From a bacterium (GTDB lineage Archaea; Thermoplasmatota; E2; JACPAO01; JAHFTW01), in assembly GCA_040390065.1 (NCBI GenBank), contig JAZJZE010000009.1:442930-506929 (forward strand): 64,000 nucleotides of DNA, in the 5' to 3' direction. Of the stretch, positions 15,346-64,000 are shown in pieces. The notes beneath the pieces are model-generated. The model worked only from the letters and a program-made list of their open reading frames with translations, had not been told where the DNA came from and made no database searches. The stretch's first letter is position 1. Every line of letters begins with the position of its first letter. The translations under genes were made by a program, and so were the position numbers.

Positions 15346-15415
15346 AAGGGGCCCCCTGACCGCCTTCTAGGGCCTTGTGGCCAGGTACTTCATTGTCGAA
15401 CCCTGGCACTCGTGT

Positions 15416-15700
15416 CTAGCCAAGTTCGAGGTCCGGCCTTGCCGGCCGGCGGGGCCGAAAACGCCAGAGAGCAAACACACCGGCGGCGATGCCAGCCGTG
15501 GCGAGCGCGCACGCATAGAAGCGATCGAAAATCGACGTTTCGCGCCCGAGCCACAGGCCGGCGAGGAACGACCCGAGATAGGCCCCCGACACGCCGAGAA
15601 GTACCATCCCCGAGAAGAACGTTGCAACGCGTTGTAGGTGCTTTTCTTGCGCAACAATCGCGGGGGCGACGCGTGATTGTACCCGGGCCACCGGCTTCAC
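15416..15700 (-). CDS. Small hypothetical membrane protein (2 TM)
   Basis: Two hydrophobic segments; starts 3 bp after the upstream minus-strand gene. Confidence 0.4.
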   Translation of the reverse strand: MKPVARVQSRVAPAIVAQEKHLQRVATFFSGMVLLGVSGAYLGSFLAGLWLGRETSIFDRFYACALATAGIAAGVFALWRFRPRRPARPDLELG

Positions 15701-15703
15701 GGG

Positions 15704-16795: not shown

Positions 16796-18602
16796 GATCA
16801 GCGCCCAGGTCGCCCGAAAAGTCGCCGTCGATTGAAACCAGCGGAATGGGGAAACTAGTGCCCAAGCCCTCGATGTAAGCCGATCCAGTCGCACACTTTT
16901 CTCCACCAGTAAACCGATACTCAACGGCGGCCTGGGCCACCGTCAGGACTTGGGCCCCACAGTCGGTAAGCTGCACGACGAGCCGGAGATTCTTGCAGTC
17001 AGCCACACCAGTGCAGTCAATGAGGACTGTGCCGGAACTGCCCGCCGTCCAATAGACCCCGTGAGCGAGGGGAATGGCCGTAACCGGAATGGGCGGGTTG
17101 TTTGAAAACACCGTCACCGCAAGGGACGCGTTCAGCCAGGCCATGGCCCCGCCCCCGGGCACGTAGGCGGCCGGCACGGGACTGCCCGAAACCGACACAT
17201 TTGTTCCTGATGCATCGTCAGAATGTGTGTTCTGCCACAATGCAAACTGGGCCCGAGCGGCGATTCGAGATTGGTCCCAGGCGTCAATGCACACCTGTTT
17301 CCCTTTCACGTAGCCATGATCATGGTAGACCGGATAAGGGTTAAGGCCCTGTGCGGCCGTGTCGCTGTACCCGTTTCCGGAACTGGCGCCGGCAACCATC
17401 AGCGGACCGATGGCCACTGGGACATTTGTGAAGGTGTTGTTGTTCGCCCCGCCCCAGTAGGTTTTTACACCTTCGACGCCGCAGTCAAGGTAGCCGCCAT
17501 TCGCAATTTCCCAAGCCTCCCTATCGCAGGCCTTCTGCGCATTATCCCCGAACCAATCGGCCATGAAGCCCAAAGCAACGCCGCCTGCCAAGATTATCAG
17601 CCCTTCCGGGAACGTCGCTCCAATGGCCTCCGATGCCCCCCAGAGAAAGACGTCGGCGCCCTTTGCTACGTTCCGATAGAAATCCTTCCCGGCGCAGGTC
17701 GCATGATCACGTCGCATTTGGTCCCAGTTGGGATAGACGCGCGTGGCTGGGTTTTCGTAGATTTGGCCCTCCTCGTAGCAAGCCACTTGGCCAATGGTCC
17801 CCTTTGTTAGGATTGGGAGTGCTAGGGACACGATGGCGAATGAATTGGCGGACACGACCTTGGAGGCAAGAGCGGGCGCATTCACTCGAAGGTACCATTG
17901 ACCAGCCGCCTGCGTCGTCTCCTTGCGGTGGCATCGACCATCGGAACCCGGCAGCGGGTCGGTCGGCTGGGGGAAATTGTTGTAGAGCAGATTTGCGGTT
18001 GCATTGGCTGCCGCATCAAGCTGCGGCTCGACTAGTACGCCTACGGCTTCAACCGTTGCGTTCACGAAGGCGCGTGCCGTGAGGACTTGGTCACAAACAG
18101 CCGCCACAACTAGGCAGGGGGACGATCGGGCGGACTGGCACAACGCCTCAAGGTGGGGAAGGCTGGGGTCAAACCGCGACAACCCGCCCAGCGGTGCACA
18201 CACGTACTCTGCAACAGATTCCGAAAGGGCACCAGCGTATTGCAAAATCGGGAGCACGATTTCCTGGGCGAGGTATGAGGCGTAGTGGAGCGCCAGGCAT
18301 TCGCGCTCATCCGGAGAGCCCGTCTGGTAGCCGGAACAATTCGCAGGTGGTGGCGGTGGCGGCGAGCCTGGGACTGGAGGGCATTGCACCGAGGGGTCAG
18401 AGCATGGAGGCATTCCCCAGCAGGGATCGCCATGTGTTGCGAGTGGGGGCACCTTGCTGATGAGCAGCGCCCAGGCCGCCTCGCACGGGTGGGCAGCCGC
18501 AACCGGCTTTGGTGAAATCCCAGGCATTCCGACGAGCGCAATTGCGACGAACGTTGCAACCATTCGAGACGCCACACGAACCTTCGACGAAGTCGCCTTC
18601 AA
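16782..18602 (-). CDS. Secreted Cys-rich hypothetical protein
   Basis: 606-aa ORF in less GC-rich DNA; signal peptide; many Cys; internal hydrophobic segment (GLIILAGGVALGFMA). Confidence 0.7.
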   Translation of the reverse strand: MKATSSKVRVASRMVATFVAIALVGMPGISPKPVAAAHPCEAAWALLISKVPPLATHGDPCWGMPPCSDPSVQCPPVPGSPPPPPPANCSGYQTGSPDERECLALHYASYLAQEIVLPILQYAGALSESVAEYVCAPLGGLSRFDPSLPHLEALCQSARSSPCLVVAAVCDQVLTARAFVNATVEAVGVLVEPQLDAAANATANLLYNNFPQPTDPLPGSDGRCHRKETTQAAGQWYLRVNAPALASKVVSANSFAIVSLALPILTKGTIGQVACYEEGQIYENPATRVYPNWDQMRRDHATCAGKDFYRNVAKGADVFLWGASEAIGATFPEGLIILAGGVALGFMADWFGDNAQKACDREAWEIANGGYLDCGVEGVKTYWGGANNNTFTNVPVAIGPLMVAGASSGNGYSDTAAQGLNPYPVYHDHGYVKGKQVCIDAWDQSRIAARAQFALWQNTHSDDASGTNVSVSGSPVPAAYVPGGGAMAWLNASLAVTVFSNNPPIPVTAIPLAHGVYWTAGSSGTVLIDCTGVADCKNLRLVVQLTDCGAQVLTVAQAAVEYRFTGGEKCATGSAYIEGLGTSFPIPLVSIDGDFSGDLGADHAYP

Positions 18603-18681
18603 TCTCCACTCACCAAGCCCTGTAGACGGGGGGGGGGTAATCAGTTTTCGCCCCCACCGGGCACCATCATCGATTGTCTCG

Positions 18682-23428: not shown

Positions 23429-24415
23429 ATGACCCCGCCCCTCCTCCTCTCTTCCACCCTTTCTCCGCCCATACCGGCGGACCCGCAGCCGCAGCCAAGC
23501 CCAGCGCCGAGCGCGCGAGCCTACATCGGTTTGGCAATCCTCGGGTGGGGCCTTTCCATGGTTCTTGGCGCATCCCCGCACGAAGACCCGTTGGTCGGCG
23601 CCGCGTTGGCCTTCTTCGGCGCCGCACTCCTCGTCTCGTCACCGCGGCTTCCGCACGTCGAGCACCTGCCCTCCACCCTCGTCGCTTGCGTTGGGATGGC
23701 ACTATGCGTTGCCATCGCCGCAGGGACCGCCCTCGCGCACACCGGGCTGAACGTGACGAAGGCCGCCGTCCTTGCCGCGGGGCTCGCGTTGGTCGCGTGC
23801 GCTCCCCTCATTGCGACCCACAGGACCATTCCATGGCGCGGCGACCAGGTCCCGCTGGCCACCGTCGCGGCCGCAATCCTCGTCGCGCTGGCCGCTCCCC
23901 TTGCCGTCTGGGGCGCGCAGGCCACCTTCAAGGACGCCTTCGGGGCGACGCCGGTCGAAACCTTCGTCGCCTTCGGCCTCCTCGTGCCGCTCGCGTTCCT
24001 GGCCAACCTCGCAGGACTGCACGCCGTCGCGCGGGGCCAGGATCTCATCTATGCAACGCCGCGAGGCCAGCTGGACGTCCAGGTCGGCGCGGCCTGCTCC
24101 GGCGTCGAGGCCATGGCCGTCTTCACGGCCGTCCTGGCCTTGTACTGCCTCATCGAACGCCCCGGTGGGAGGGCCCTGGGCATGTGGAGTCTTGTCGGCC
24201 TAATCGGCGTCTACGTGGCCAACATTCTGCGCCTCACGCTGCTCGTCGCCGTTGGCTACTGGTGGGGAACGGACGCACTGCTTCGCGCGCACGCGGAGGC
24301 CGGCTGGATCGTCTTCGTGGCCTGGGCACTCGTGTTTTCGTGGCTCGTCCGTTCGCAGGTGTCGCGTTCGCGCAAACGCGGGGCAGCCCCGCTGCCGCAG
24401 GATGGCCCTCCGTAG
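23429..24415 (+). CDS. Archaeosortase/exosortase family transpeptidase
   Basis: Multi-TM; catalytic Cys (VGAACSG), Arg (ANILR) and His (RAHAEAGW) in family spacing. Confidence 0.85.
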   Translation: MTPPLLLSSTLSPPIPADPQPQPSPAPSARAYIGLAILGWGLSMVLGASPHEDPLVGAALAFFGAALLVSSPRLPHVEHLPSTLVACVGMALCVAIAAGTALAHTGLNVTKAAVLAAGLALVACAPLIATHRTIPWRGDQVPLATVAAAILVALAAPLAVWGAQATFKDAFGATPVETFVAFGLLVPLAFLANLAGLHAVARGQDLIYATPRGQLDVQVGAACSGVEAMAVFTAVLALYCLIERPGGRALGMWSLVGLIGVYVANILRLTLLVAVGYWWGTDALLRAHAEAGWIVFVAWALVFSWLVRSQVSRSRKRGAAPLPQDGPP

Positions 24416-26006: not shown

Positions 26007-26316
26007 GACTCCCCAGCCTCGAATAGACCCCATTCTGTTTCCCAGCCACTCTCGCGAATGTCTGGCAAGCGGCATCCGACTACGCGTCGCATGGACTTGC
26101 ACCCCGAGGGACGATGACCGTTTCAACAAATCCGCAAGAGACGTCAGGACCAAGTCCATCATCCCATTCCCGCGACTGTGTCGTTTCTGCGTCTCATCCA
26201 GCCCGTCTCCAGGCTCCAGCTTCTGCCGACCCGTTCTGCGCCTTGCGGCGCTGGTGTGGGGATCTTCCTCAGCCACCCTTGCGGGCTACCGTCAGCCGCT
26301 CTGAGGCGAGGGAGTC
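26007..26316 (-). ncRNA. rnpB: Archaeal RNase P RNA
   Basis: Minus strand: terminal P1 GACTCCCTCGCCTC...GAGGCTGGGGAGTC; CR-I GAGGAAGATCCCC, GCAGAAACG, TTGAAACGG, GGTGCAAG, CR-V AACAGAATGGGGTCTA; 310 nt; BRE/TATA-like CGAAACCGTAAAG about 25-37 nt upstream. Confidence 0.88.
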
Positions 26317-28310: not shown

Positions 28311-28469
28311 CCACTGTAGTATAGTAGAGGCTACCAGATTGGGAGGCAGACGCCCGGCAGGCGGTAAGGCGAACGCGCTGGGGCCGGGTTCCGGCGGGCG
28401 CTTGCGGAAGGCCGCCTGCGTGTAGCCCCGCAAGGCTCCCGAGTATATGGTGGGAAAAGGTGGAGAAAG

Positions 28470-28545
28470 TCGGGACTGCCGGATTTGAACCGGCGTAATC
28501 CAGATCTACAGTCTGGCGCCCAACCGAGCTAGACGCAGAGCCCCG
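28470..28545 (-). pseudogene. Duplicate or variant copy of tRNA-Tyr(GTA)
   Basis: Identical to nt 9-73 of the tRNA-Tyr 177 bp away; 5' acceptor strand replaced by CGGGGCT plus a 4-nt linker. Confidence 0.75.
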
Positions 28546-28646
28546 CGAAGGGGCTGCGCCCCTTTCGAAACCGGCGCGTCGTGGGGCGCTCGCTTCGCTC
28601 GGCCCCACATAGCCAACGATGAAACGGAAGGGAAAAGGGGGGAAAG

Positions 28647-28720
28647 TCGGGACTGCCGGATTTGAACCGGCGTAATCCAGATCTACAGTCTGGCGCCCAA
28701 CCGAGCTAGACGAAGTCCCG
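28647..28720 (-). tRNA. tRNA-Tyr(GTA), intronless
   Basis: CGGGACTTCGTCTAGCTCGGTTGGGCGCCAGACTGTAGATCTGGATTACGCCGGTTCAAATCCGGCAGTCCCGA; C1-G72 and A73 archaeal Tyr identity elements; followed by a pyrimidine tract. Confidence 0.9.
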
Positions 28721-35012: not shown

Positions 35013-36368
35013 CTAGAGGTCGTTGCGTGGCGGCCGGGGCCGTGCAGGTCTGGCAACCGGTGCCTTCGGCTCGGCGAACTGCGCATGCTCGGTGGAACCC
35101 GGCAAGGCGACCGCCGACGAGTCGCCGGGGGCGATGACGCGGGCGACTTCGTCGAACCAACCGGCGCCGACCTCCTTTTGGTGGGCGAAGCCCTTGTACC
35201 CAGAGGCGGCCAGGGCCTTCTCGTCGCGCTGCAGTTTGACGTACGCCGTCATGCCATCGCGCACGTAGCCCGATGCCAGGCCGTACACCGCGGCATTCAT
35301 GGCATGGAAGCCGGCAAGGGTCACGAACTGGAATCGGTACCCGAGTTCCGCCAGGGCGGGCTGGAATTCGGCGATCTCGGCGGCGTCGAGGTGCTCCTCC
35401 CAATGGAACGACGGGCTGCAGTTGTAAGCCAGGAGCTTGCCCGGATGCTCTTGGTGGATGGCATTGGCAAAACGCTTCGCCTCCTCGATGTCCGGTTCGT
35501 TCGTCTCGAACCACAACATTTCGGCGTAGGGGGCGTAGGCCAGCCCGCGGTGGATGGCGGCATCCAGGCCCGGTCGGGTCTCGAACAGGCCTTCGCGCGT
35601 CCGCCGCCCAGTGAGAAACGCCTGGTCGCGCGTGTCCGTGTCCGATGACACGAAGTTTGCCGCGTGCGCATCGGTACGTGCGATGAGAAGCGACGGCACG
35701 CCCATGACGTCGGCCGCAAGCCGCGCCGCCCGCAGCGTTCGCACGTGCTGCAAGGTTGGCACGAGGACCTTGCCGCCGAGGTGGCCGCACTTGCGCGACG
35801 ACGACAACTGGTCCTCGTAGTGCGCCGCGGCGGCGCCCGCTTCGATTAGGTGCTGCATGAGCGTGAAGGCGTTGAGGGGGCCGCCGAAGCCGGCCTCCGC
35901 GTCGGCGACGATGGGCGCCAGCCAATCCGTGGACGGCATGCCGTGCGCCGACTCGATCTGGTCCGCGCGCAGAAGGGCCTTGTTGATGCGCTCGACGAGA
36001 GCGGGAACGCTGCTGACGGAGTACAGTCCGAGGTCAGGATACGTCTCGCCGTCGAGGTTGTTGTCGGCCGCAACCTGCCAACCCGACAGGTAGATGGCTG
36101 GGGCGCCGGCGCGCACCATCTGGACGGCTTGGCTCCCCGTGAGGGCGCCAAGAGCAGGCACGAAGGACGACGTGGTGAGGAGGTCCCAGAGCCGCGTCGC
36201 GCCGCGCCTGGCCAGCGTGTGCTCGATCTGCACGCTGCCGCGCAGGCGGACGACGTCTTGCGCCGTGTAGTCACGACGCAGGCCTTCCCAGCGGGGGTCG
36301 GAGGCCCATGACTCCTGCAAGGCTTGAGCCTCCTCGTCGGCCGGTGTGCCCGGCGTCGGCGGCGTCAT
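35013..36368 (-). CDS. aceA: Isocitrate lyase
   Basis: [19 protein letters not shown], active-site [25 protein letters not shown]. Confidence 0.95.
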
Positions 36369-37978
36369 GGGGCATCCTCCTTCAGCAAGCCCATGCCGGG
36401 AATGGTCAGGAACTCGACGAACGGGTCCTGCAAGGCGACGAGGTCGAAGAAGGAGCGGGCCGCGTCGAGATGCGCCCGGGCCGCCGGTGCAAGCGAATCA
36501 TCGGCGCGCAACGCCATCAATTGGTCGCGAGCGACGGCGCGCACGAGGTCAGCCGTGACGGTCCGCGCGTCCTCGAGGACGACGCCCTGATGCACCCATT
36601 GCCAGACTTGCGCTCGTGCAATCTCGGCTGTCGCCGTGTCCTCCATGAGGGAATCGATGGCGACGGCGCCCGTCCCAGCAAGCCAGGAGGCAAGATACGC
36701 GATGGCGACGCGAACGTTGGACTGCAGCCCCGCTTGCGTGACGGCGCCGCTTGGGACTTGGACGCACAGCAGGTCCGGGGCGCCGATGCGTGCGTCGCCG
36801 TGCACGTGCAACTGGTTCGTGCGCTCGGCCATGTGGGTCCGGAACGTCTCGAGCGCCACGGGGACGAGGTCGGGGTGCGCGACCCATGTGCCGTCGAATC
36901 CCTGGCCGGCTTCTCGCACCTTGTCCTCGCGCACCTTGGCCAAGGCGAGTTCGTTGCGGGCCGGGTCCTTGCGGCTCGGGACGTAGGCGGCCATGCCCCC
37001 GATGGCGTAGGCGCCGCGGCGGTGGCACGTCTGCACCAAGAGTTGCGTGTAGGCCCACATGAACGGCTGCGTCATGGTCAGGTCGGCGCGGTCGGGCAGG
37101 ACGAAGCCAGGACGCGCCCGCAGCGTCTTGAGGGCACTGAACAGGTAGTCCCAGCGCCCGGCGTTGAGGGCCGGCGAACGCTCGCGAAGCTCGTAGAGGA
37201 TCTCGTCCATCTCGAGGGCGGCCGGAAGGGTCTCGATGAGGACGGTCGTGCGCACGGCGTTGCGGGGCAAGCCAAGCGACTCCTCGGCTGCCGTCAAGAT
37301 GTCGTGCCACAGCCTGGCCTCGACGTGGCTCTCCATCTTGGGAAGGTACAGGTACGGCCCGGAGCCGTGGAAGAGGAGGGCCTGGGCGTTGTGGAAGATG
37401 AAGAGTCCCGCATCGAACAGGCTGGCCGATATGGGCCGGCCGCCCACGGCGACGCGGGGTTCATCCAAGTGCCAGCCGCGAGGGCGCACGACGAGGGTTG
37501 CATGGTGCGGCGCCAACGTGCGAGGAGCACCGCCGGACGTCGGGGCGGCAATCGTTCCGCGCACCACGTCCATGAGGTTGGCTTGGCCTTCCAGCAGATT
37601 GCGCCACGTCGGGACCGTTGCGTCCTCGAAGTCGGCCATGTAGACTTGCGCTCCCGAATTGAGCGCATGCAGCATCATGCGGCGGTCCGTTGGGCCCGTA
37701 ATCTCGACGCACCGGTCCACCAGGTCCGGCGGGGGCGGGGTGACGCGCCACGAGGCCTCGCGGATCGGACGCGTCGCCTCAAGTTGGGCAAGTGGCGCGC
37801 CGGCATCGATGGCGGCTTGGCGCTCGCGGCGCAGGCGCAGGACGGCCTGGCGGCGCGCTTCGAAGCGCTCGTGCAGGCCCACGAGGAAGCGCAGGGCCTC
37901 CGGTGACAGCAGGTGCCGCGGCAGGTCGGCGGGGACGGGCTTGACCAGGATTTCGGGAGCGACGGCGATGGACTTCAT
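36365..37978 (-). CDS. aceB: Malate synthase A
   Basis: [58 protein letters not shown]. Confidence 0.95.
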
Positions 37979-38086
37979 GGGCATGACCTCCGGTGGGGGG
38001 AAGGGTTGCTCCAGCCGCGGTTCGCCTTGGGGGCGGTCGTGGCCGTGCGGATGGGTTTTCCTCTTGGGGCGGACCGTATAAGTGGT

Positions 38087-38092
38087 TGTCGT
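38087..38092 (-). promoter_or_regulatory. Putative TATA box for the aceBA operon (leadered; SD-like GGAGGT near the start)
   Basis: CTTATA on minus strand; GGAGGT just before ATG 37984/37978. Confidence 0.45.
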
Positions 38093-38164
38093 ACAAGGTT
38101 CGAAGTTGCCGCGGCCGCAAAGTCGCGCCGCCTGCAACATGGACACGCATGACGAACAGGGACA

Positions 38165-39826
38165 CTACGTCCGTGTGTACGCCGCCGTCGTGCCCCAGTG
38201 GCCGACCTCGTGCCATGACGAGAGGAAGCCCGTCGGCAGGCCAGCGGCCGTCGTGTACTTGTCGACGAGGACGACCATGTGGGGATGTTGCCGTAACTCG
38301 TAGTCGCGCACGGTTGGGTCCTGGAAGAAGCCTGGATTGAATTGCGCGTCGCCCGCCGTGAAGGCACGGTAGCCGGTGCGCGCCTGCCACGATCCCGCGA
38401 GCACGTAGTCGGTGCCCCGGTCATGCAGGGCGCCCCACGCCTGCAGGTCATCGCTCTCGTAGATGCGGTACCACGGCGCCGTGGCCATGGCGGTGGGCAC
38501 GGTGAGGGCCAGAGTGAGGGCGACGACGCCGACTGCCAAGCCGGCGCGGGCGCTGCGCTTCGAGTTCGAGGCCATGGCAAAGAGTTCGGCCACGGGTAGG
38601 GCAGCCAGCATCGCAAGCGGGATGGCAAGGTACGCGACGGTGCGGTGCGGGATGTACCAGATGCCGAACCAGTCGACGAGGACGAATGGCAGCATGAACA
38701 GGGCCAAGCCAAGCGCCAGCAGGGAGAACCGGCTGCGGCGCACAATCGCCAGGGCGGCCCCGACGCCGCCAAGCAACAACGCAGGCACCGTCAGCATCGC
38801 AGGGAGGTCGACGAACACCGGAAGCGGGTTGATGGACGAAGGATGGGATGCCAACTGCGCAAGCCGCCCAAACCCGCGCCCGACGACGAGGTCGGCCATG
38901 GCGGGGACGGCGAGAGAGACCAAGCACACCGCAGCGAAGCCGCACGCGGCCAGCACCAGCCGGGTCCGCCACGCGGGCAGGCGGCGCCAGAGCACACAGA
39001 GGGTGAACACGGCCATTGGCAGCAGCAGAAGGGCAACGAGCCACGGGTGCACGACGAGGACGACGGCGCCAAGGACGCCGGCCGTGACGAGCGCGCGCCG
39101 CGAGCCGTCCGCTGCCATGAGGACGGCGAGCAGGAGCCACGGCAGGATTCCTAGGTCGACGGCCGTGGGGAAGAGGATGTCCGTGCGGCGAATCGTCTCG
39201 GGCATGACGGCAAGCAGGGCGGCCGCCGTCAAGGCGCCGGCCGGATGCACGTAGCGGCGGCACAGGACGAACGCGCCGACCACCATGGAGACGCCGAAGA
39301 GCGACGGCAGGAAACGGGCTGCGGCGTAGAACACCGACGGGCCTGCCAAGGCGAAGGGAGCGAGCATGATCTGCAGGCCGGGGGGATAGCTGAAGGAGAA
39401 CTTGCCCTGGAGCAGGTCCCAGGTACGTTCCATGTGGCGGTACGGGTCCTCGGCGCCCATCACGGGGCTGGAGGTCGCATCGACGAGACGCAGCATGAGG
39501 GCCAGCCCAGCGAGGCCCGCCAGCATGAGCCAATGGACCCAACTGGTTCCATCCCCCACCCCGGTGGCCGTCGGATGGGCGGCCATGGGAGTCGCGTGGG
39601 CCATGCTGCCATCGGACATCGGGGCTGGCTGCCTCGTGCCGGCGGTGGGGAAGCTCGCCCCATCCATCGCGGGCGTGGGGGGGTGATGCAGGCCGGACGG
39701 CGCCGGGCGCGTGGCGACGGGCATCGGGGGTGATGAGGCGGGCCTGGCCGGCGAAGCATTTGGCATCGCGGCAGAGACCATTGCAGGTGCGGACGGCTTC
39801 GGTGTGTTGGGCAGTTGGGTGGTCAT
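38165..39826 (-). CDS. Multi-pass membrane protein, GT-C-fold glycosyltransferase-like
   Basis: First-loop EDPYRH and YPPG motifs, about 11-13 TM, small C-terminal soluble domain; ATGA-coupled to the GT2. Confidence 0.65.
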   Translation of the reverse strand: MTTQLPNTPKPSAPAMVSAAMPNASPARPASSPPMPVATRPAPSGLHHPPTPAMDGASFPTAGTRQPAPMSDGSMAHATPMAAHPTATGVGDGTSWVHWLMLAGLAGLALMLRLVDATSSPVMGAEDPYRHMERTWDLLQGKFSFSYPPGLQIMLAPFALAGPSVFYAAARFLPSLFGVSMVVGAFVLCRRYVHPAGALTAAALLAVMPETIRRTDILFPTAVDLGILPWLLLAVLMAADGSRRALVTAGVLGAVVLVVHPWLVALLLLPMAVFTLCVLWRRLPAWRTRLVLAACGFAAVCLVSLAVPAMADLVVGRGFGRLAQLASHPSSINPLPVFVDLPAMLTVPALLLGGVGAALAIVRRSRFSLLALGLALFMLPFVLVDWFGIWYIPHRTVAYLAIPLAMLAALPVAELFAMASNSKRSARAGLAVGVVALTLALTVPTAMATAPWYRIYESDDLQAWGALHDRGTDYVLAGSWQARTGYRAFTAGDAQFNPGFFQDPTVRDYELRQHPHMVVLVDKYTTAAGLPTGFLSSWHEVGHWGTTAAYTRT

Positions 39827-42240
39827 GCATGCACTTCCTGGGGCGGGCTATCTTGGACGAGGAACTCGACTTCGTCGGCGCCGACTGGCAGCGTCGGGGA
39901 CACGGCACCGGCGGCGAGGACGGGTGCGCCGTCTTGCGGGCGCGTGCTGACGAAGGACTTGTAGGCGTAGAGGGGCGCTGCGCTGAACAGGAGTGCGTAG
40001 TAGACCAGCCAGAAGCCAAGCAGCAGATGGCCGACGGCGAGGGCGGCCCCGTGCGGCTCGTTGCCTGTGGCGCTGCGCACCGCGACGGCAACGCACGTCA
40101 GCAGGAGGAGGATCGCCATGACGGATTCGAAGATGGTGATGCGGAGGGCGCGTCGGAACGCCTCGCCGCGGCGCATGGCGTAGGTGGGCGCCTTCGGTGT
40201 GCGCAGGAACGGGATGGAGAACCCAAGAAACGCCTTGAGGGCGGCGCGCGTGTTGGAGAACTTGACGGAGAACCACATGCCCAGGATGCGCAGCGTTCCG
40301 CCGAAGCCGAGGTTGATGCTGCGGCGCAGGACGAAGTGCACGCGCGTCAGCCCATCCAGCAGCAAGAACAAAGGGACGAGGCCGACCAGCATGACCTCGT
40401 CCGTGTGGTGGGTGACGATCTCGAGGCCTGCGGCGTCGGCCACGCCCATGCCCAGCACGAACAGTGAGATGGCGAAGATGAAGGCCCCCTCGAACCAGTT
40501 GAGGTTGCCCACGAGGTAATCCAGGCGCTGGCGGAAGGTGAACCGGCCGAACAGGAACCGTAGGCCGTGGCCTCGCAGGATGCGGCCGCCGCCGAATGCC
40601 CAACGGTAGTGCTGGCGCTTGTAGCCCTCGAACGTCGGCGGAATGAGGCCGCGGCCGTAGGTCTTGTTGACGTAGAGCGAACGCCAGCCTGCGTTCAGTA
40701 GCCGGACCGACAGTTCGGCGTCCTCCGTGATGTACTTCTCGCCCCAGCCGCCCACCTCCTGGACGGCCCGCTTGCGCAGCATCCCCATCGTGCCGCAGAA
40801 GATGATCGAGTTCTCCTCGTTGCGGCTCGGCAGGATCGTGCGATAGAAGTATGCATCAGCAAGATAGTATTGCTCCGTAAGGAACGACTGGTGGCGGTTG
40901 CGGTAATCCTGCGGCGTCTGCAGCCAGCCGAGCTCCGGGTCGACGAAGAAGCCCACGGTGGCACGCAGGAATTCGGGCTCGACGTGGTAGTCGGCGTCGA
41001 CGACGGCGACGAGGTTGGCATCCGGCGGCGTCTGCCGCAGCAGCATGTTGAGCGCCCCGGCCTTGTAGCCGGAACGGTCGCGGCGGTGGAGGTAGGCAAC
41101 CCCGTGGCCCTTGCAGAAGGCACGCAGGGGATTGCGGCAGGCGTCGTCCGTGGAGTCGTCGCCCACCATGATGATGAAGCGGTCCTCCGGGTAGTCGAGG
41201 TCGAGCAGGCGTTGCAGTGTCCCGATGACGAGGTCCGGTGGTTCGTTGTAGGTGGGGACGTGGATCGCGACCTTGGGGAGGTAGTACGGCGAGAACATGG
41301 CCTCCTCGGTCGTGCGCCGCCAGTGCTTGCGGGCCGCGACGTCGATGGTGTAGAAGCTGTACAGCAGGACCATGAGGAGGCTGGCAAGCTCGGCGGCAAA
41401 GAGCGAGTCGGACAGCCAAGCCTGGTCCGGCGGCACGGCCGGCAGCGTGATCGAGGTCGTGTAGAGGATGTAGCCAAGGACCACGAAGAGAAGCGACACG
41501 ATCGTGAGGATGCCGTACAGCCGCCAGGCGTAGCGCGACAAGAGCGCCCCCGCGGCCGCGGCGATGCCGACGAAAAGGAACTCGGCCGGCGAGAACGAAT
41601 AGAGCGCCGTGGCCAGGTGCTCGACACCGTCCTGCGTGTTCGGGATGGAGGGATAGAAGATGATGACGAACGCGACGCAGAAAATGGTGAGGCCTGCGAG
41701 GGCACCGACCAGGCCGCCGGCGAGCATGCGGGCCCCGCGTCGAACCAGGGAGCCACCCGCCGCGTACAGGCCGATGACCGTGCCGGCGACCGCCCCGATG
41801 AGAAGGAACAGGAGGATGGGGTCGTGCCGGTCTGCCACTGCGGCGCGGGCATGCTCGAGGCCCTGGGTCAGGGTGGCAGGTTGGTGCCGGGCCAGCCACA
41901 AGCCGATGTAGCCGCCAAGCGAGACTCCGGCCCCGCAGGCCGTCGCGAGGGCGATGACGATGGTCCGGCCGATTCCGGTCATGATGCCGACCACGAGGCG
42001 GTTGCGTACGAGCAGGCCCGCGACGAGGAAGCCTGCCAAGCCGCCGACGAGGGTGAAATTGGCGGCGGCGCCCGCGAACAAGCCACGGGTGGACAAGTCG
42101 GCGAAACCCTCGGCCAGCGACTGCCCTGGATGTGTTGCCGCCCAGAACGCTGCAAAGCCCAGCGCACCGAGGGCGACTCCGATGACACCCCCGAAGGCCG
42201 CCACGAGGAGCGCGCCTGGTGGACGCGGTGCAGAAGTCAC
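39823..42240 (-). CDS. Processive family-2 glycosyltransferase (cellulose-synthase-like beta-glycan synthase)
   Basis: PTYNE, DDS, KAGALN, DAD, QTPQ, FCGT, TED, QHYRW (D,D,D,QxxRW) plus flanking TM helices. Confidence 0.88.
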   Translation of the reverse strand: MTSAPRPPGALLVAAFGGVIGVALGALGFAAFWAATHPGQSLAEGFADLSTRGLFAGAAANFTLVGGLAGFLVAGLLVRNRLVVGIMTGIGRTIVIALATACGAGVSLGGYIGLWLARHQPATLTQGLEHARAAVADRHDPILLFLLIGAVAGTVIGLYAAGGSLVRRGARMLAGGLVGALAGLTIFCVAFVIIFYPSIPNTQDGVEHLATALYSFSPAEFLFVGIAAAAGALLSRYAWRLYGILTIVSLLFVVLGYILYTTSITLPAVPPDQAWLSDSLFAAELASLLMVLLYSFYTIDVAARKHWRRTTEEAMFSPYYLPKVAIHVPTYNEPPDLVIGTLQRLLDLDYPEDRFIIMVGDDSTDDACRNPLRAFCKGHGVAYLHRRDRSGYKAGALNMLLRQTPPDANLVAVVDADYHVEPEFLRATVGFFVDPELGWLQTPQDYRNRHQSFLTEQYYLADAYFYRTILPSRNEENSIIFCGTMGMLRKRAVQEVGGWGEKYITEDAELSVRLLNAGWRSLYVNKTYGRGLIPPTFEGYKRQHYRWAFGGGRILRGHGLRFLFGRFTFRQRLDYLVGNLNWFEGAFIFAISLFVLGMGVADAAGLEIVTHHTDEVMLVGLVPLFLLLDGLTRVHFVLRRSINLGFGGTLRILGMWFSVKFSNTRAALKAFLGFSIPFLRTPKAPTYAMRRGEAFRRALRITIFESVMAILLLLTCVAVAVRSATGNEPHGAALAVGHLLLGFWLVYYALLFSAAPLYAYKSFVSTRPQDGAPVLAAGAVSPTLPVGADEVEFLVQDSPPQEVHA

Positions 42241-42761
42241 ACGTCCACCTCGAAGTCGCACTCGGGCGCGCCGCGGCCATGGCACGCGATCTCGCGGACG
42301 GCGACGCGGGGACCGAAGACCTCGCGGAACGCCAACTCGACGCCACTGCGCTCACGCGAGCATTCCAAACCTCGCACACCGGCGGTGCAGCTTGCGCATC
42401 CGTACAGGCGCAGGTGCGTGAAGTGGTCGACGGAGCGCAGGAGCCGCGGCTCGCCGAGGTTCATCTCGATGACCCGCGCAAGAGCAAGGTCGACGGGGGG
42501 ATGCGTCGCCGACTGCATGTGCCGGCGCTTGCCCGTCGGGCGGGCCGGTCGGCGCGGCGGCGGCGCGCCCGCGATGGGTCGAAGCTCACGGCTGCCGGGC
42601 CGGGCAGCGCGGCCGGGCCTCTGGCTGCGTTCGGGGAAGAGGTTCTGCAGGACGACGAGAAGGATGATCAGCGACAGGATGGAGAGCCCGCCCACGAGCA
42701 GCAGGATGGCGGAATCGGCGGCCACCTTCTGGATGCCCGTGGGGAGGGCCAGCACCTGCAT
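42237..42761 (-). CDS. Membrane-anchored V4R (4-vinyl reductase) domain protein
   Basis: N-terminal TM, basic linker, LYGCASC...C...VREIACHGRGAPECDFEV. Confidence 0.75.
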   Translation of the reverse strand: MQVLALPTGIQKVAADSAILLLVGGLSILSLIILLVVLQNLFPERSQRPGRAARPGSRELRPIAGAPPPRRPARPTGKRRHMQSATHPPVDLALARVIEMNLGEPRLLRSVDHFTHLRLYGCASCTAGVRGLECSRERSGVELAFREVFGPRVAVREIACHGRGAPECDFEVDV

Positions 42762-43735
42762 CAGGCGCCCTCTTGGCAGACCAGGTGCGTTGCGAAGTCG
42801 TGTGCCTGGAAGGTCCAGTGGACCGGCGGCGGAACCGGGGCGGTGGCGTTGTCCGGGGTTTCCTGGACGATGAGTTCCAGCACCACGGGGCTCGTCTCGC
42901 AGCGGCCGACATGCCCAGGCCACCAGGCCGCCATTGCGTCCCGCGAGAAACCGAGCGTCGCATGGGCGGAGGCGGTGCCGCCGGCCGGGATGCGCAATGT
43001 CGTGTCCGAGGTACCGGAGGCCACGGCGTTGCCGGCAAGGTCGAGGGCGGCATCGATGCCGCGCACCACGACGACATCGGCACCAGGGTTGCGCAGTCGC
43101 AGGTTCACGTCCAGGGATCCGTTTCGCCAGCTGGCCGTGGCCGCGTCGAGGCAGACCTCCGCATGCCCGTCGGCACAGTTGTGCGCAGCGGCCGCGACGG
43201 TGTCCGCCAGGTTTCCCGTCCAAGCGTTGGAGATGGAGAACGGCGGCGACTGGCCCGCGCCTCCATCGGCGACTTCGACGAGGCCCTTGATGGACAGGTC
43301 CGACGATTCGTCTGCGGCCACGTATGCATCCCACCAGGCGGGCACGAAGTTGGCGCCGAGAGGCACGACGAACCACAAAGAGGTCTGCTGGGCGGGGGCC
43401 AGGTCCACGCCCGTCGGCACCTTGGCGGCGGCGATGCTGCGCCCATGCGAGAAGGCTTCGTAGGTCACGGCGGTGGCGCGCCCGGGCATGGTCCCGTTGG
43501 ATTGCAAGACGAGAGTGACCACGATGTGCCGCGCGGCGGGGTCGGTCGTGTCCCAGCGCGCTTGCACGGCAGCCACGCGGAACGCCGAGGGCATCTCCTG
43601 GGACGTCGTGCTGGTCGACGGTACCGAACGCGACTCGGCAGCGGGTCCGCCGTTGCCGGTGTACACGACCACCAGGACGAGGAGGCCGAAGAGGGCCAGG
43701 AAACTGATTAGGACGGCATTCACGAATTGGGTCAA
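42761..43735 (-). CDS. Membrane-anchored protein with two LEA_2/WHy-like domains
   Basis: N-terminal TM; two repeats of (V/L)xLxxxN...Y/I...G..(V/L)x(L/I)xP(A)xxxT...WWxx(Y/H)V. Confidence 0.65.
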   Translation of the reverse strand: MTQFVNAVLISFLALFGLLVLVVVYTGNGGPAAESRSVPSTSTTSQEMPSAFRVAAVQARWDTTDPAARHIVVTLVLQSNGTMPGRATAVTYEAFSHGRSIAAAKVPTGVDLAPAQQTSLWFVVPLGANFVPAWWDAYVAADESSDLSIKGLVEVADGGAGQSPPFSISNAWTGNLADTVAAAAHNCADGHAEVCLDAATASWRNGSLDVNLRLRNPGADVVVVRGIDAALDLAGNAVASGTSDTTLRIPAGGTASAHATLGFSRDAMAAWWPGHVGRCETSPVVLELIVQETPDNATAPVPPPVHWTFQAHDFATHLVCQEGA

Positions 43736-43963
43736 GGGTCATCCCTTTGCGGCGCCTTGCCGGCGGGTCCGCGGCGCGAAGGCCGCGTGCAAGGGCACCA
43801 TCAATGCTGTCCTTTTCGATGGTCCCCCAGATTGAAAGTCTTGTCGAAGACCGCCACTCTCGATTGCCGCAAACAGCAACCCGACGCGCAAACATCCGAT
43901 GGCCGGCCCCGAAAGGGGGCTCCAATCCGCCGTTTCCGTGCGGTTGTTTGCCGTGATGCGAAC

Positions 43964-45052
43964 TCAGCAGCGTACTTGGGCCACCGGCGTGGCGCTGGAG
44001 CCGCGACCATCCGTGATGGCACGGGCACCTGCGGCGTACGCGGCAAGGGCCGCATCACTCGAATCGGCCGGCCAGTCGAGGTCGCGGTGGCTCTCGATCT
44101 CGTACTTGGCATCGTTGAACCACACGAAACCGCGGATGCGGCCGTAGCTGTGGAGTTTGGCATACATGTCGCCAATCCAGGCGGCCTTGTCGCCGCCGCG
44201 CTCGGTCGACGCGGTTTCGGCGATCAACAGCGGTTTTGTCGTCGCGGCTGTGACGGCGCAGTAGGAGTCATGGAAGATGTCGTCGAAGGATTGCCAGCCC
44301 CAGTTCGCATTGGCGCCCCAGTTGTAGCCGTCGATGGCGACGAAGTCCACGTATGCGTCACCGGGATACGCGTTCGTGAAGGTGGCCCCCTGCCCGAGGC
44401 TGAAGTGGTTGACCGCCCAGACGAAGCGGACGTCGCTCCCGCAGCGGTTCGTGAAGGCGTCGTGGACCTTGATCCAGGCGCGGCGGTAGTTGTCGATGGA
44501 GTTCGGCGTGTGGCCCTGGCCGTCCTTCCAAGTGATGCCCCAGGCGAACCAGAATCCGTTCATCTCGTGCAGCGTGCGGACGAGGATGGGTTGTTGCGCG
44601 GCATGGGCGGCCTGGCACGTCCCTTCGGCGAATTCGGCGACGTAGTCGTCCATCGCCATGCGGCGTCCGTCGCGCAGGGGAATCTGCTTGTGGCCGTCGA
44701 GGATGTCGACCGTGGTGAGTCCCTGCGGCTCCCAGGTCAGGACGGGCACGGCGCCACGCGATGCGATGTGGTGCAAGGTGTGGCTGACATTGGCAAACGG
44801 CGTGTTCCAGTCCAGGTAGACGTCCACGACGTCGAGGCGGACGCCTGCCTTGTCTTGGAATTGGTCGATGGCAGGGTTGCCGTCGGCCGGCCAGGAACCC
44901 AGCCAAGCGCCGACCACGACCTCGCCGCTGTCGAGTGCTTCCCAGCCATGGTGATCCGGGAGCCTCCAGAGGACGCAGCCGGAACTCGCGATGGCGAGCG
45001 CGACCTGGATGGCCGCGACGACGGCGATAGGCAGGCGCGCATGCGCGGTCAC
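43964..45052 (-). CDS. Glycoside hydrolase family 26 (beta-mannanase/glucanase-like), possible lipoprotein
   Basis: VLTWEP, acid/base HEMNGFWFAW, YPGDAYVDFVAIDGYNW, nucleophile KPLLIAET; hydrophobic N-terminus ending ASSGC. Confidence 0.88.
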   Translation of the reverse strand: MTAHARLPIAVVAAIQVALAIASSGCVLWRLPDHHGWEALDSGEVVVGAWLGSWPADGNPAIDQFQDKAGVRLDVVDVYLDWNTPFANVSHTLHHIASRGAVPVLTWEPQGLTTVDILDGHKQIPLRDGRRMAMDDYVAEFAEGTCQAAHAAQQPILVRTLHEMNGFWFAWGITWKDGQGHTPNSIDNYRRAWIKVHDAFTNRCGSDVRFVWAVNHFSLGQGATFTNAYPGDAYVDFVAIDGYNWGANANWGWQSFDDIFHDSYCAVTAATTKPLLIAETASTERGGDKAAWIGDMYAKLHSYGRIRGFVWFNDAKYEIESHRDLDWPADSSDAALAAYAAGARAITDGRGSSATPVAQVRC

Positions 45053-45198
45053 GGAGCTTGCAGAGGGCGCCAAACGTTCCTCACCCAAAGTCGAGGGCCG
45101 CCCGATTCGGCCGTTGCGTCGCAGGCAATGGACCATGCAAGGACGGCCGGATGCCGCATGGCCAAGCGTTATGCCGCACCAACGACAGAACAACGGCC

Positions 45199-61594: not shown

Positions 61595-62749
61595 TCAGGC
61601 GCAGGCCGTCGTGGGGTAGCACTCGACGCCAGAATTGTCTCCGTTGACGAGGACGAATTCCGGTGGGCCGTCCCACGGACCGTAGTTGAGGCCCCAGGCC
61701 TTCATGTACTGATTTCTATCAATCGAGTAGGATTCAACGAACCGCCCAGACAAAGGGGGCCGCACGTGCTTCGCGGCCGTTGTGGAGTCGATGATGTTGT
61801 GACCGATTGATAGTTGCAGGTAGTGAACAGCGGGGAAGTAAGGTGTCACCGCGTCGCCTCGCACTGCCAAGACCGTCGCATAGACGTACATCGGTAACAG
61901 TTTTCCCTGACTTTGGCTGAAGTACAGGAAGCCCCAGACGGGCACTGTCCCGTCTCCAGGCGCGAGGTCCGGCGGAACCAAGGCCTGCTGTGTGGTCTCG
62001 AAGGAGTCGAACTTGATTTCCTGGAAGAGTCCCGCGTTATCCAGGCTGTTGCCTTCGGGGGCGGCCACTGCGACAAGGATTGCGTCGCTCGACCACAACT
62101 GGCCTTGCACGTCAGCCACATCCCGAGAGTACGTGAAGTTGAGGCCCGGCAGGTTGATTGCCGGGACACCGGGGGTGGGCAACGTGTTGTTGAGGCCGAA
62201 GGTTTTCCCGGTGTCCACATCGAGGAACTTGCGGATGTTCGTGGCGTTGCCCAGGAAATTGGTCGTAACGGTCCACACAGAATCCTTGTCCACAGTACTC
62301 AACCAGTAATTCACCGTCGTCCGATTCGTGATTGAGGGATGCAGGGACGACAGGGTGCTAAGGGTCGAGTTGAGCGCGCCTTGGTTGTTTGGATCAAGAA
62401 CGGGTGCCACGGGCAGCGCCACGACAGTCATGCTTGTAGATGCTAGCGCCTGGCGGACCGTCGTTCCCGCGTCCCCGACCTGGACGACTTTGGCGTAATG
62501 ATCAAGCGGCGAATAGTACGAAAAGTACTCGCTGCGTGCGTAGATGGCTCCGCTGTCATCAAACTGGTCCGTGACGCTGACCCCCACGAGAATGTAGGCG
62601 TGTGTCAGATTGCCGACTGCGTTTCCTGCTTGGCTCGTAAGTGAGTTCGCCGTGCGTGATACATCGGGGACGGGCGGAGCACCGCAGCCGGCCAGTAGAA
62701 CCGCGGCAAGGATTGACAGAGCCGTGATTTGCATGGTTGCGTGTTTCAT
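61595..62749 (-). CDS. Hypothetical lipoprotein
   Basis: LSILAAVLLAGC lipobox; starts 4 bp after the protease stop. Confidence 0.7.
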   Translation of the reverse strand: MKHATMQITALSILAAVLLAGCGAPPVPDVSRTANSLTSQAGNAVGNLTHAYILVGVSVTDQFDDSGAIYARSEYFSYYSPLDHYAKVVQVGDAGTTVRQALASTSMTVVALPVAPVLDPNNQGALNSTLSTLSSLHPSITNRTTVNYWLSTVDKDSVWTVTTNFLGNATNIRKFLDVDTGKTFGLNNTLPTPGVPAINLPGLNFTYSRDVADVQGQLWSSDAILVAVAAPEGNSLDNAGLFQEIKFDSFETTQQALVPPDLAPGDGTVPVWGFLYFSQSQGKLLPMYVYATVLAVRGDAVTPYFPAVHYLQLSIGHNIIDSTTAAKHVRPPLSGRFVESYSIDRNQYMKAWGLNYGPWDGPPEFVLVNGDNSGVECYPTTACA

Positions 62750-62753
62750 TGTT

Positions 62754-63998
62754 TCAGCTCCACAAACTGTCGCCAACCGATTCATGCGGCCCCCAGGCAG
62801 GGTGGTAGCCGGAATCGTAGATGCCGGCGTTCGTCTTCATCAGGCTCATGTCGACTTGCGTCGAATAGTGGTTGAAGATGGTAAACCATGCGGAATGGTT
62901 GGGTCCCGGAGTGGTCTGCCATTGCATGGTATTGGCGCATGAAGGCGGTACGTTCGTGGCGCTGTAATCGCCTTCGGCTGAGAATTCCAGGCCGGGATCA
63001 TACGCACTGCCATCCATCAGGGTCTCGTACTGGTTCGAGTCCCCGTGCTCGTAGCAGTGGGTGTTCGCATTCGTTTTTCCGTTGTGGTCCTTGTACTCAT
63101 CCTGGAGGTAGAACGCGTAGTGGCCCCATTCATGTGCTAGGTCCTTGGCCCACCTGTTTCCAGGAGGGCCGTCGACCTGGACACCTACGTCCTTTGCCTC
63201 CGACATGGCCATAAAGACGTGACCAAGATTGGCAAACTTGAACTGGCAAGTAGATGGGACGGACTGACAGGCCGGATCAGTTGCCTTCTTGAAATCAATT
63301 CCGCCTACATTCGCCATGAACCAATGACCGACCGTATTGTCGGCCTTGTCGTGGAAAATCTGGATGTCCGCATTGACCCATTCCGGGTCAGTTGATTGAC
63401 TCCCAGTGCACGTGTGGATGGTGACCTTGCCAAACAGGAACTTGCCTGACGTGGCATCCCAGAGGTCGTCGCTGGCCGTCCTTATGGATCCTTGGAGGGA
63501 TTTCATCCATGCCGAATCCGCTGCCTCGCACCAGGGAACCGCTACGTCGACGTCGAAGCCCTTCACGTCCTTGACATGGGGGTCGAGTCCCCATCGGACC
63601 TCGTCCCAATTCGCGACGCCGTCGTGGTCGTAGTCGGAAGCGCCGTCATTGATGAACGGGTTGAGGCCGACGAAATTGGCAACAGTCGGATATGCATAGA
63701 CGCTCTGCGACAACGGGGACTCGCGATCCTTCATTTCCAGCGCGAAGGGAATCTTGTCACCGTCCTTTCCATTCGTGTACAAGTAGAACCACAATTGCCC
63801 TTCCACCCAGTCGCCCACGCCCCAGCCCTTGCAGTGACCGTACCCGTTTCCGTCGGCTGGAACGTCGTCGCCCAACCACGTGCCTGTCTGCATGCTATAG
63901 ACCAGCGTGCAGCCCGGATAGGCTTCCGGATGCGGGCCGATGTTGATTGGATGGGGTGCAATGAATCCATCGTCGTACAGGTTGAGAGTGGGGCCGAC
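62754..63998 (-). CDS. Zinc metalloprotease with CLCA-like catalytic domain (5' end outside window)
   Basis: AHEWGHYAFYLQDEY (HExxH...DEY), ASDDLWDATSGKFLFGKVTI, Met-turn-like TLMD; DYDHDG Ca-binding motif; frame open to the window end. Confidence 0.75.
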   Translation of the reverse strand, partial: VGPTLNLYDDGFIAPHPINIGPHPEAYPGCTLVYSMQTGTWLGDDVPADGNGYGHCKGWGVGDWVEGQLWFYLYTNGKDGDKIPFALEMKDRESPLSQSVYAYPTVANFVGLNPFINDGASDYDHDGVANWDEVRWGLDPHVKDVKGFDVDVAVPWCEAADSAWMKSLQGSIRTASDDLWDATSGKFLFGKVTIHTCTGSQSTDPEWVNADIQIFHDKADNTVGHWFMANVGGIDFKKATDPACQSVPSTCQFKFANLGHVFMAMSEAKDVGVQVDGPPGNRWAKDLAHEWGHYAFYLQDEYKDHNGKTNANTHCYEHGDSNQYETLMDGSAYDPGLEFSAEGDYSATNVPPSCANTMQWQTTPGPNHSAWFTIFNHYSTQVDMSLMKTNAGIYDSGYHPAWGPHESVGDSLWS

Positions 63999-64000
63999 CA

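Follow-up and report, generated by a model that had tools for sequence, protein, structure and literature searches.

A candidate archaeal beta-glucan synthase locus that combines a BcsA-like GT2 with V4R and GT-C-fold proteins

What is known of synthase-dependent polysaccharide secretion comes from bacteria and eukaryotes; to our knowledge no archaeal example has been characterised. Several BcsA-like beta-glucan synthases dispense with PilZ, among them CrdS (curdlan), BgsA (mixed-linkage glucan), Streptomyces CslA/GlxA/CslZ and clostridial CcsA/CcsZ, and we know of no synthase of the CrdS, BgsA, CslA or CcsA type that pairs with a V4R or a GT-C protein. The pairing of a GT2 with a GT-C protein is a hallmark of polyprenyl-phosphate sugar systems, whose GT2 enzymes (DPM1, ArnC, GtrB) are short and have neither QxxRW nor a channel-forming transmembrane (TM) bundle. 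The oligosaccharyltransferases (OSTs) STT3, AglB and PglB carry a WWDYG motif on a large C-terminal domain; we know of no OST-like GT-C enzyme that has been linked to a processive GT2 before. The locus described here lies in a stretch of 64,000 nucleotides, the window (contig JAZJZE010000009.1, positions 442,930 to 506,929, of assembly GCA_040390065.1), and consists of five co-oriented open reading frames (ORFs) on the minus strand at 38165-45193. They encode a GH26 glycoside hydrolase, a protein with a TM helix and two LEA_2 modules, a protein with a TM helix and a V4R domain, a BcsA-like GT2 and a protein of GT-C fold; all five stand where a preliminary description of this DNA had placed them, with the domains and catalytic motifs that it had named. 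The window is archaeal, as that description had assumed, because it contains an archaeal RNase P RNA (124.5 bits), and the relatives of the locus are found in metagenome-assembled genomes (MAGs) of Thermoplasmatota.

Domain identities, BcsA-like and STT3-like folds, gene linkage and natural fusions, all established in silico, point to a Thermoplasmatota membrane machine that would polymerise and export a beta-linked glucan in the manner of BcsA, with V4R, GT-C and accessory proteins at its side; we give this mechanism a slightly better than even chance. The roles of the V4R, GT-C and LEA_2 proteins within it are those that we infer.

The synthase and its V4R partner

The GT2 matches three GT2 families and Cellulose_synt in Pfam; in NCBIfam CelA is best (6.9e-57), followed by PgaC (9e-22) and NodC (3.6e-14), and the best solved relative by sequence is R. 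sphaeroides BcsA (PDB: 4p00, 3.7e-36, BcsA residues 45-450). In an alignment of 18 homologues the motifs DDS, DAD, TED, QHYRW, KAG, QTPQ, FCGT and F-x-R-T-x-K are invariant or nearly so; D349/D350, D403-A-D405, E494/D495, Q531, R534 and W535 are identical in all 18 sequences and all align with BcsA. The conserved F666, R668, T669 and K671 lie in a loop that follows the third interface helix and precedes the last two TM helices, and the AlphaFold2 (AF2) model of the protein places F-x-R-T-x-K between an amphipathic helix and these two helices, at a position that we take to be equivalent to the gating loop (FxVTxK) of BcsA. In this model [predicted local distance difference test score (pLDDT) 85.5] helices at 229-291 precede and helices at 557-753 follow the GT domain, with about 16 predicted membrane-region helices, and the last TM helix is followed by a disordered tail at the position occupied by PilZ in BcsA. 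Structural comparison of the model identifies BcsA as the best match [E. coli 9b8v_E, 1.5e-21 (TMq 0.53); R. sphaeroides 4p00_A, 4.1e-21], followed by PcManGT (4.3e-13), hyaluronan synthases, plant CesA and CslF6. By its motifs and its predicted TM architecture the enzyme is, at the superfamily level, a BcsA-type processive synthase, and would not be the non-processive glycolipid synthase without a translocation channel that the preliminary description had set against its own proposal; processivity and a glucose donor as such are presumed. The model also contains an N-terminal block of about 225 residues (1-228, about eight helices) that has no equivalent in BcsA. These residues have neither a Pfam match nor a usable match in the ESM Atlas, and part of the block is missing in shorter paralogues.

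In the V4R protein a TM helix at the N-terminus is joined through a Pro/Arg-rich linker to a Cys-rich V4R domain, in which three cysteines are invariant; because the linker is basic, the positive-inside rule would place the domain in the cytoplasm. The family profile finds the MJ1460 protein (PDB: 2osd) as a weak match (0.0069). A resemblance between the TM segment and BcsA residues 550-592 was insignificant (E = 0.46) and was discarded.

Conservation of the locus was surveyed with one genome per species in the best 80 of 187 confirmed loci (from 270 pattern matches), by searching six-frame ORFs with tblastn and iterated hidden Markov models (HMMs); in 43 loci the GT2 is at least 40% identical to that of the window, and 37 are more distant. 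Two of the 43 (L034 and L040) could not be scored for the V4R gene as their upstream DNA ends at a contig edge. In 40 of the 41 testable loci the V4R gene lies directly 5' of the GT2 gene on the same strand; in the more distant loci it was found in 0 of 37. The TM-V4R and GT2 proteins are encoded by a single open frame in two loci, L021 and L025 (Table 1). The fusion is probably one event, because the two MAGs are close relatives. At two other loci two or three tandem V4R-like ORFs lie 5' of the GT2.

Modelling of the GT2-V4R complex gave a score of 0.70 (runs 0.74, 0.70 and 0.64), a value that expresses the model's own confidence, whereas none of three controls scored above 0.00, with a partner pLDDT of at least 65 and a contact agreement between runs of at least 56%. 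The mark applied recovers 58 of 80 solved complexes and lets 2 of 110 mismatched pairs through, a calibration that is approximate here as custom alignments were used. The V4R TM helix is predicted to pack on GT2 residues 233-255 and 610-634 and on part of the N-terminal extra block, which thus supplies contacts to the partner, and the V4R domain to contact the GT domain at 299-311, 339-342, 397 and 411-423. The model supports binding of V4R to the GT2. On the strength of the adjacency, the natural fusions and the complex model with its controls we read the V4R protein as an obligate and probably regulatory subunit of the synthase, in line with the regulator envisaged in the preliminary description.

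Homologues of the GT2 are MAG proteins of Thermoplasmatota/Thermoplasmata (482 at E<=1e-3 among 8000 candidates scored). In a FastTree tree of 79 loci and the window (midpoint root, long-branch warnings; L040 is outside it, its GT2 being a short piece), which is informative for grouping and not for the direction of transfer, the archaeal sequences of at least 40% identity form one group. Two clades fall outside it, one of 8 Thermoplasmata sequences and one of 29 from bacteria (22 Chloroflexota, 3 Dormibacterota). Several MAGs contain two paralogous modules. Two loci (L013 and L020) from a record titled Proteobacteria bacterium have a GT2 and gene order near-identical to those of the Thermoplasmata loci L035 and L017; this MAG probably holds archaeal contigs. 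Among the surveyed loci the full five-gene set occurs in the window only. The conserved core is V4R and GT2 (with GT-C, in 16 of 43 loci), and GH26 (3 of 43) and LEA_2 (5 of 43) are sporadic, lineage-specific accessories. Co-conservation elsewhere, the lack of which the preliminary description had named as a refutation of its proposal, is found for the core, with the two accessories present in few loci. A helix-turn-helix regulator present in 12 loci was considered as a further member and was not counted; its distance varies and it is found on either strand.

The GT-C-fold protein, the surface accessories and the likely polymer

The AF2 model of the GT-C-like protein [pLDDT 92.2, predicted TM-score (pTM) 0.90] matches STT3 (2.8e-10), A. 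fulgidus AglB (3.4e-10), PglB (3.3e-8) and ArnT (4e-6), and further ALG12, AftA, DPY19 and Pmt4; there are 34 PDB matches at E<=1e-3, and those listed are GT-C enzymes. The TM-score to STT3, AglB and PglB is about 0.6 over the query. Sequence homology to these enzymes is weak: the family profile finds AglB (1.9e-4) and STT3B (1.2e-3) over TM3-4 only, and a search of the PDB with the single sequence returned chance matches to ABC transporters (E >= 0.2), which were rejected. Of 26 family members, 24 match Pfam PMT_2, 10 STT3, 10 DUF6541 and 8 PTPS_related at E<=0.01; the copy in the window is without an STT3 match, and NCBIfam has no match for the GT-C, GH26 or LEA_2 protein. Directly after TM1 the family conserves the motif GAEDPYxHMxRTWDL, in which E52 and D53 are nearly invariant; further conserved motifs are MPE..RRT..FPTA.DL, HPW, VDW...PHR and a C-terminal WYR...GSWQ..GYR module. 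By the usual topology of GT-C enzymes the acidic motif would face outwards, beside the exit of the chain from the synthase. About 95 residues follow the last TM helix and form a small alpha/beta domain; the large OST domain is missing, and no WWDYG-type motif is present among the conserved alignment columns. The family is small: a limit of E<=1e-10 gives 142 representatives among 1.84 billion, and one of E<=1e-30 gives 91.

The GT-C gene is present within 10 kb of the GT2 in 16 of the 43 loci, spread over at least four separate GT2 subclades, and lies directly downstream in 9; at least 1.5 kb of DNA downstream of the GT2 is available in 40 of the 43. Among the 120 best-listed GT2 homologues six have a length of 1169-1240 aa, and the two that were checked (P0104 and P0109) are GT2-GT-C fusions that align across the whole GT-C protein with 42% and 40% identity. 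The GT-C protein may decorate, anchor or guide the chain. Decoration from a lipid-linked donor, as put forward in the preliminary description, is one inference among several and needs qualifying as a specific claim; the window has no gene for a polyprenyl-phosphate sugar synthase.

The GH26 protein (Pfam 1.6e-14, 54.4 bits, cutoff 20.2) has both catalytic glutamates, in HEMNG and IAET; the first is invariant in four of four orthologues and the second in all three that reach the site. Translated from the GTG at 45052, it starts with a signal peptide that ends in a lipobox-like SSGC (LSGC in L003); in L018 and L019 a TM anchor takes the place of the lipobox. The window protein probably sits as a lipoprotein on the outer side of the membrane. 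Among solved structures its first ten matches all belong to 'Endoglucanase H' of C. thermocellum (2bv9 best, 3e-48 to 1.6e-46), which we take to be the lichenase CtLic26A, the subject of a 2005 paper cited in both PMC13390465 and PMC6556568; the lichenase scores 168 bits, mannanases at most 47 bits (best 1.6e-11). By sequence the enzyme is thus of the lichenase type (CtLic26A-like) and not mannanase-like, and lichenases are, according to PMC6556568, a separate branch of GH26. The three GH26 genes in the 43 loci belong to two separate subclades, upstream in L003 as in the window and downstream of a fused GT-C in L018 and L019. In four other loci (L008, L011, L026 and L030) the V4R-GT2 pair is adjoined by a secreted hydrolase of clan GH-A, the best solved relatives of which are GH158 enzymes (3.5e-9 and 5.3e-8) and then GH2; the ORF in L011 is truncated. 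GH158 is reported to be a beta-1,3-glucanase family.

Because two unrelated types of glucanase tied to 1,3-containing beta-glucans accompany the synthase, the sequences suggest a beta-glucan with 1,3 or mixed 1,3/1,4 linkages as the polymer, a proposal held with less confidence than the overall mechanism. A mannan is unlikely, and the mannan-like product offered in the preliminary description finds no support in view of the lichenase-type GH26 and of the GH158-like enzyme that replaces it elsewhere. In one other subclade a GT4/starch-synthase-like gene (8 loci), GH15 (6) and PGI (4) recur as neighbours; the GT4 and GH15 genes lend weak support to glucose chemistry and may be synteny inherited within the subclade.

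The LEA_2 protein has an N-terminal TM helix and two LEA_2 (WHy-like) beta-sandwich modules; a WW motif closes each module, and conserved cysteines suggest disulfides outside the cell. Domain 2 passes the Pfam cutoff (6.1e-10, 39.9 bits, cutoff 25.4); domain 1 is below it in the window (0.029, 15.3 bits) and passes or nearly passes in orthologues [L009, 1.3e-11 (45.2 bits); L001, 1.7e-5 (25.6 bits); L003, 4.2e-5]. The protein is predicted to be extracellular, on the outer face of the membrane, and possibly handles the glycan. Its gene lies 5' of V4R in five of the 43 loci, all of them within the 11-row clade that contains the window.

Proposed mechanism and rival explanations

In the mechanism that we favour the GT2 would be the catalytic and channel subunit; it would build a beta-linked glucan from a sugar nucleotide, with UDP-glucose as the most likely donor, and extrude the growing chain across the membrane, as bacterial BcsA does. 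The single-pass V4R partner would replace PilZ, with its domain against the GT domain and its TM helix against the TM bundle of the synthase, and would switch the synthase in response to a small ligand, to a metal or to redox conditions. On the outer face the STT3/AglB-like GT-C protein, coupled or fused to the synthase, would act on the emerging chain, either adding lipid-linked sugars to it or attaching it to an acceptor. In the lineage of the window the membrane-tethered tandem LEA_2 protein and the GH26 lipoprotein would be further parts of the system, and GH26 would trim or release the polymer in the way that BcsZ acts on cellulose.

Several observations weigh against this mechanism or against parts of it. 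The GT2 scores far below the curated cutoffs for cellulose synthase (192.9 bits against 699.1 for CelA, TIGR03030; 128.1 against 992 for PRK11498) and is therefore no equivalog of BcsA, and neither donor nor linkage can be read from its sequence. The V4R match of the window copy is below the Pfam cutoff (1.4e-5, 25.5 bits, cutoff 31), although the orthologue in L014 exceeds it with 42.6 bits; the complex score is no measurement; and in L041 the GT2 is without V4R, a divergent PGI gene occupying the V4R position. The match of the GT-C protein to PMT_2 (9.6e-4) is also below the cutoff. GH26 and LEA_2, being rare, may be lineage add-ons or plain neighbours, and L003, the closest locus with GH26, is without GT-C; the ORFs 3' of the GT2 there, and likewise in L006 and L007, have no Pfam match. 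The match to GH158 covers about 140 residues at a modest 3.5e-9, and the copy in L008 has SD at the putative acid/base position where those of L026 and L030 have NE. The 64-kb window contains no nucleotide-sugar genes, GDP-mannose genes included, beside having no polyprenyl-phosphate sugar synthase.

The fold of the GT-C protein, whose nearest solved relatives are OSTs ahead of ArnT, raises the question of whether the product is a glycoconjugate: the GT2 would elongate and export a glycan primed on dolichyl (pyro)phosphate and the GT-C protein would act as a ligase that moves the whole chain onto an acceptor in the form of a protein, a lipid or the S-layer, in analogy to the ligation that follows synthase-dependent O-antigen synthesis. 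The recovery of AglB and STT3B by the family profile, the conserved acidic motif after TM1 and the GT2-GT-C fusions all fit such a ligase. The protein is, however, much smaller than an OST (479-553 aa against 640-870 aa) and is without the large C-terminal domain and a WWDYG-type motif, a priming phosphoglycosyltransferase is not found in the 64-kb window, and 27 of the 43 V4R-GT2 loci have no GT-C within reach, which means that the synthase can work without it; we consider this assembly unlikely. The hallmark pairing of GT2 and GT-C, together with the presence of PcManGT, a crenarchaeal membrane mannosyltransferase, among the fold matches, would also fit a classical couple in which a non-processive polyprenyl-phosphate hexose synthase feeds the GT-C enzyme, as in DPM1/PMT, ArnC/ArnT and GtrB/GtrC. 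Here the GT2 itself is the obstacle, as at 793 aa it has QxxRW, FCGT, QTPQ and the F-x-R-T-x-K that resembles a gating loop, its GT domain is flanked on either side by TM helices like those of BcsA, its BcsA fold matches are eight or more orders of magnitude above PcManGT, and endo-glucanase genes in the loci make sense only with a polymer; such a couple is very improbable.

The nature of the polymer could be otherwise than proposed. Cellulose is the product of BcsA itself, and PMC13390465 and PMC6556568 have the majority of characterised GH26 enzymes as mannanases, so that a beta-mannan or cellulose with GH26 acting as a mannanase might be considered. The large difference in score between lichenase and mannanases, the GH158-like enzyme as the alternative hydrolase and the lack of GDP-mannose genes in the window make this reading quite improbable; pure cellulose would be compatible with these data. 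That the genes are plain neighbours without a common system would agree with the confinement of the five-gene set to the window, with the housekeeping genes on both sides and with the isocitrate lyase and malate synthase genes kept also in L002, which indicate that part of the synteny is simply inherited. For V4R, GT2 and GT-C this is largely refuted by the V4R-GT2 adjacency, held over deep divergence (40 of 41 loci, down to 40% identity), and by two kinds of natural fusion, and GH26 occurs at differing positions of the cluster in two subclades; chance neighbourhood is extremely improbable.

The mechanism of a BcsA-like synthase with V4R and GT-C partners can be carried further, in a tentative form that we think has a rather small chance of being right. 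V4R, GT2 and GT-C would then form an unrecognised archaeal three-part line, in which a beta-1,3 or mixed glucan is coupled covalently to a lipid, an S-layer protein or another envelope acceptor by the docked or fused STT3-derived GT-C protein, giving soil and groundwater Thermoplasmatota a polysaccharide envelope layer, and in which a Cys-rich V4R sensor (redox, metal or small ligand) replaces control by cyclic di-GMP (c-di-GMP) and PilZ.

An archaeal BcsA-like synthase with natural V4R-GT2 and GT2-GT-C fusions is directly testable and could, through its fusions, be of use in structural studies, and it is a candidate answer to how such a synthase is switched where c-di-GMP and PilZ are absent. 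A processive GT2 linked to a GT-C enzyme of OST type would join polymer export to glycan transfer, and the system may explain a surface polymer of uncultured terrestrial Thermoplasmatota. As the hosts are uncultured, tests require heterologous expression.

Gene layout, genomic setting and comparison with described systems

The positions of the genes and of other features are collected in Table 1. The strings TGATG, GTGA and ATGA, said in the preliminary description to couple the last four genes, are present in the sequence at the junctions of the LEA_2 stop with the V4R start, of the V4R stop with the GTG at 42240 and of the GT2 stop with the GT-C ATG at 39826. The coupling is secure only in part, as the protein database entries for GT2 and GT-C start later and two of the three overlaps therefore hinge on the choice of start codon. 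The longer GT-C start adds a Pro-rich N-terminus, and the N-termini of homologues are likewise Pro-rich, which makes the ATGA start plausible; the TTG start of the LEA_2 gene agrees with the start position of its orthologues in the alignment. The four genes downstream of the spacer may form a transcription unit separate from GH26.

Table 1. Coordinates of the cluster genes and other features of the window, and of related features in other loci (positions preceded by a locus name refer to that locus)
Feature	Position	Strand	Remarks
GH26	43964..45052	-	GTG start 45052; alternative TTG start 45193
Spacer, GH26 stop to LEA_2 start	43736..43963	-	228 nt, from sequence
TM + 2x LEA_2 protein	42761..43735	-	Pfam LEA_2; TTG start 43735
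TM + V4R protein	42237..42761	-	Pfam V4R, below cutoff; orthologue above cutoff
GT2	39823..42240	-	GTG start 42240; alternatives 42204 (database, 793 aa) and 42285
GT-C-like protein	38165..39826	-	ATG start 39826; alternative database start 39604 (479 aa)
Isocitrate lyase + malate synthase	35013-38146	-	glyoxylate shunt pair; 4-nt mutual overlap
tRNA-Tyr(GTA), first	28469-28537	-	37.9 bits; the shorter of the two
tRNA-Tyr(GTA), second	28646-28720	-	55.4 bits
Archaeal RNase P RNA	26012-26311	-	124.5 bits
Exosortase_EpsH-like membrane protein	23429-24415	+	9.3e-10; possibly archaeosortase
Region of lower G+C	15346-18681		G+C 0.61
Region of lower G+C	62001-64000		G+C 0.575
TM-V4R + GT2, single open frame	L021:3243-5771		843 codons stop to stop
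TM-V4R + GT2, single open frame	L025:4822-7356		845 codons stop to stop
Tandem V4R-like ORFs 5' of GT2	L038:84-1923		two or three ORFs
Tandem V4R-like ORFs 5' of GT2	L039:3-1601		two or three ORFs
GH158-like secreted hydrolase	L008:7720-9261		
GH158-like secreted hydrolase	L011:4600-5331		
GH158-like secreted hydrolase	L026:13030-14463		
GH158-like secreted hydrolase	L030:13223-14326		

The cluster is flanked by housekeeping genes, upstream an NMN-adenylyltransferase-like gene and LonB, and directly downstream the isocitrate lyase and malate synthase pair, which is also found 3' of the cluster in L002. Elsewhere the window, which has a G+C content of about 68%, encodes glycine-cleavage genes, TrkAH, thiolase and RFC. 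The two tRNA-Tyr genes stand about 110 nt apart, and the exosortase-like gene is about 14 kb from the cluster. The G+C content falls in two regions, and in the first of these (15.3-18.7 kb) a gene caller based on GC3 (G+C at third codon positions) found no ORF.

Pfam and NCBIfam scans of the five cluster proteins detected no PilZ, BcsB or BcsC domain, in agreement with the preliminary description. Its statement that the gene combination is undescribed also holds, within the full-text literature searched (subscription journals lay outside its scope), where no published account of the V4R, BcsA-like GT2 and GT-C combination was found.

The nearest described relative is the bacterial cellulose system BcsA-BcsB with BcsZ. 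The archaeal GT2 shares with BcsA its membrane-integrated build, the D, DxD, TED, QxxRW, KAG, QTPx and FCGx motifs, a motif resembling the gating loop and, as predicted, the TM architecture, and the locus in the window contains an endo-glucanase gene, as bcs loci contain BcsZ. The V4R protein, a single-pass TM partner predicted to lie against the TM bundle of the synthase, recalls the TM anchor of BcsB. Unlike a Bcs system, the cluster proteins include no PilZ, BcsB or BcsC, the hydrolase is GH26 or GH158-like and not GH8, and the host is archaeal; unlike BcsA, the synthase would have a separate TM and V4R regulator, about 225 additional N-terminal residues and a GT-C-like partner. CrdS, BgsA, CslA and CcsA belong to the same superfamily and resemble the archaeal system in the combination of a synthase with a cognate hydrolase and lineage-specific accessories; were the product of the archaeal GT2 1,3- or mixed 1,3/1,4-linked, it would parallel those of CrdS or BgsA. 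With STT3, AglB and PglB (GT66) the GT-C protein shares the GT-C fold, a conserved acidic motif in the first external loop and weak homology in TM3-4, whereas it is about 300 residues shorter, is without the C-terminal acceptor-binding domain and is linked or fused to a processive GT2 outside an N-glycosylation cluster. The GH26 protein is like CtLic26A, the GH26 module of CelH, across nearly the whole catalytic domain (E = 3e-48) and in both catalytic glutamates; unlike CtLic26A, it is archaeal, is anchored through a putative lipobox without a carbohydrate-binding module or dockerin, and is encoded inside a biosynthetic cluster.

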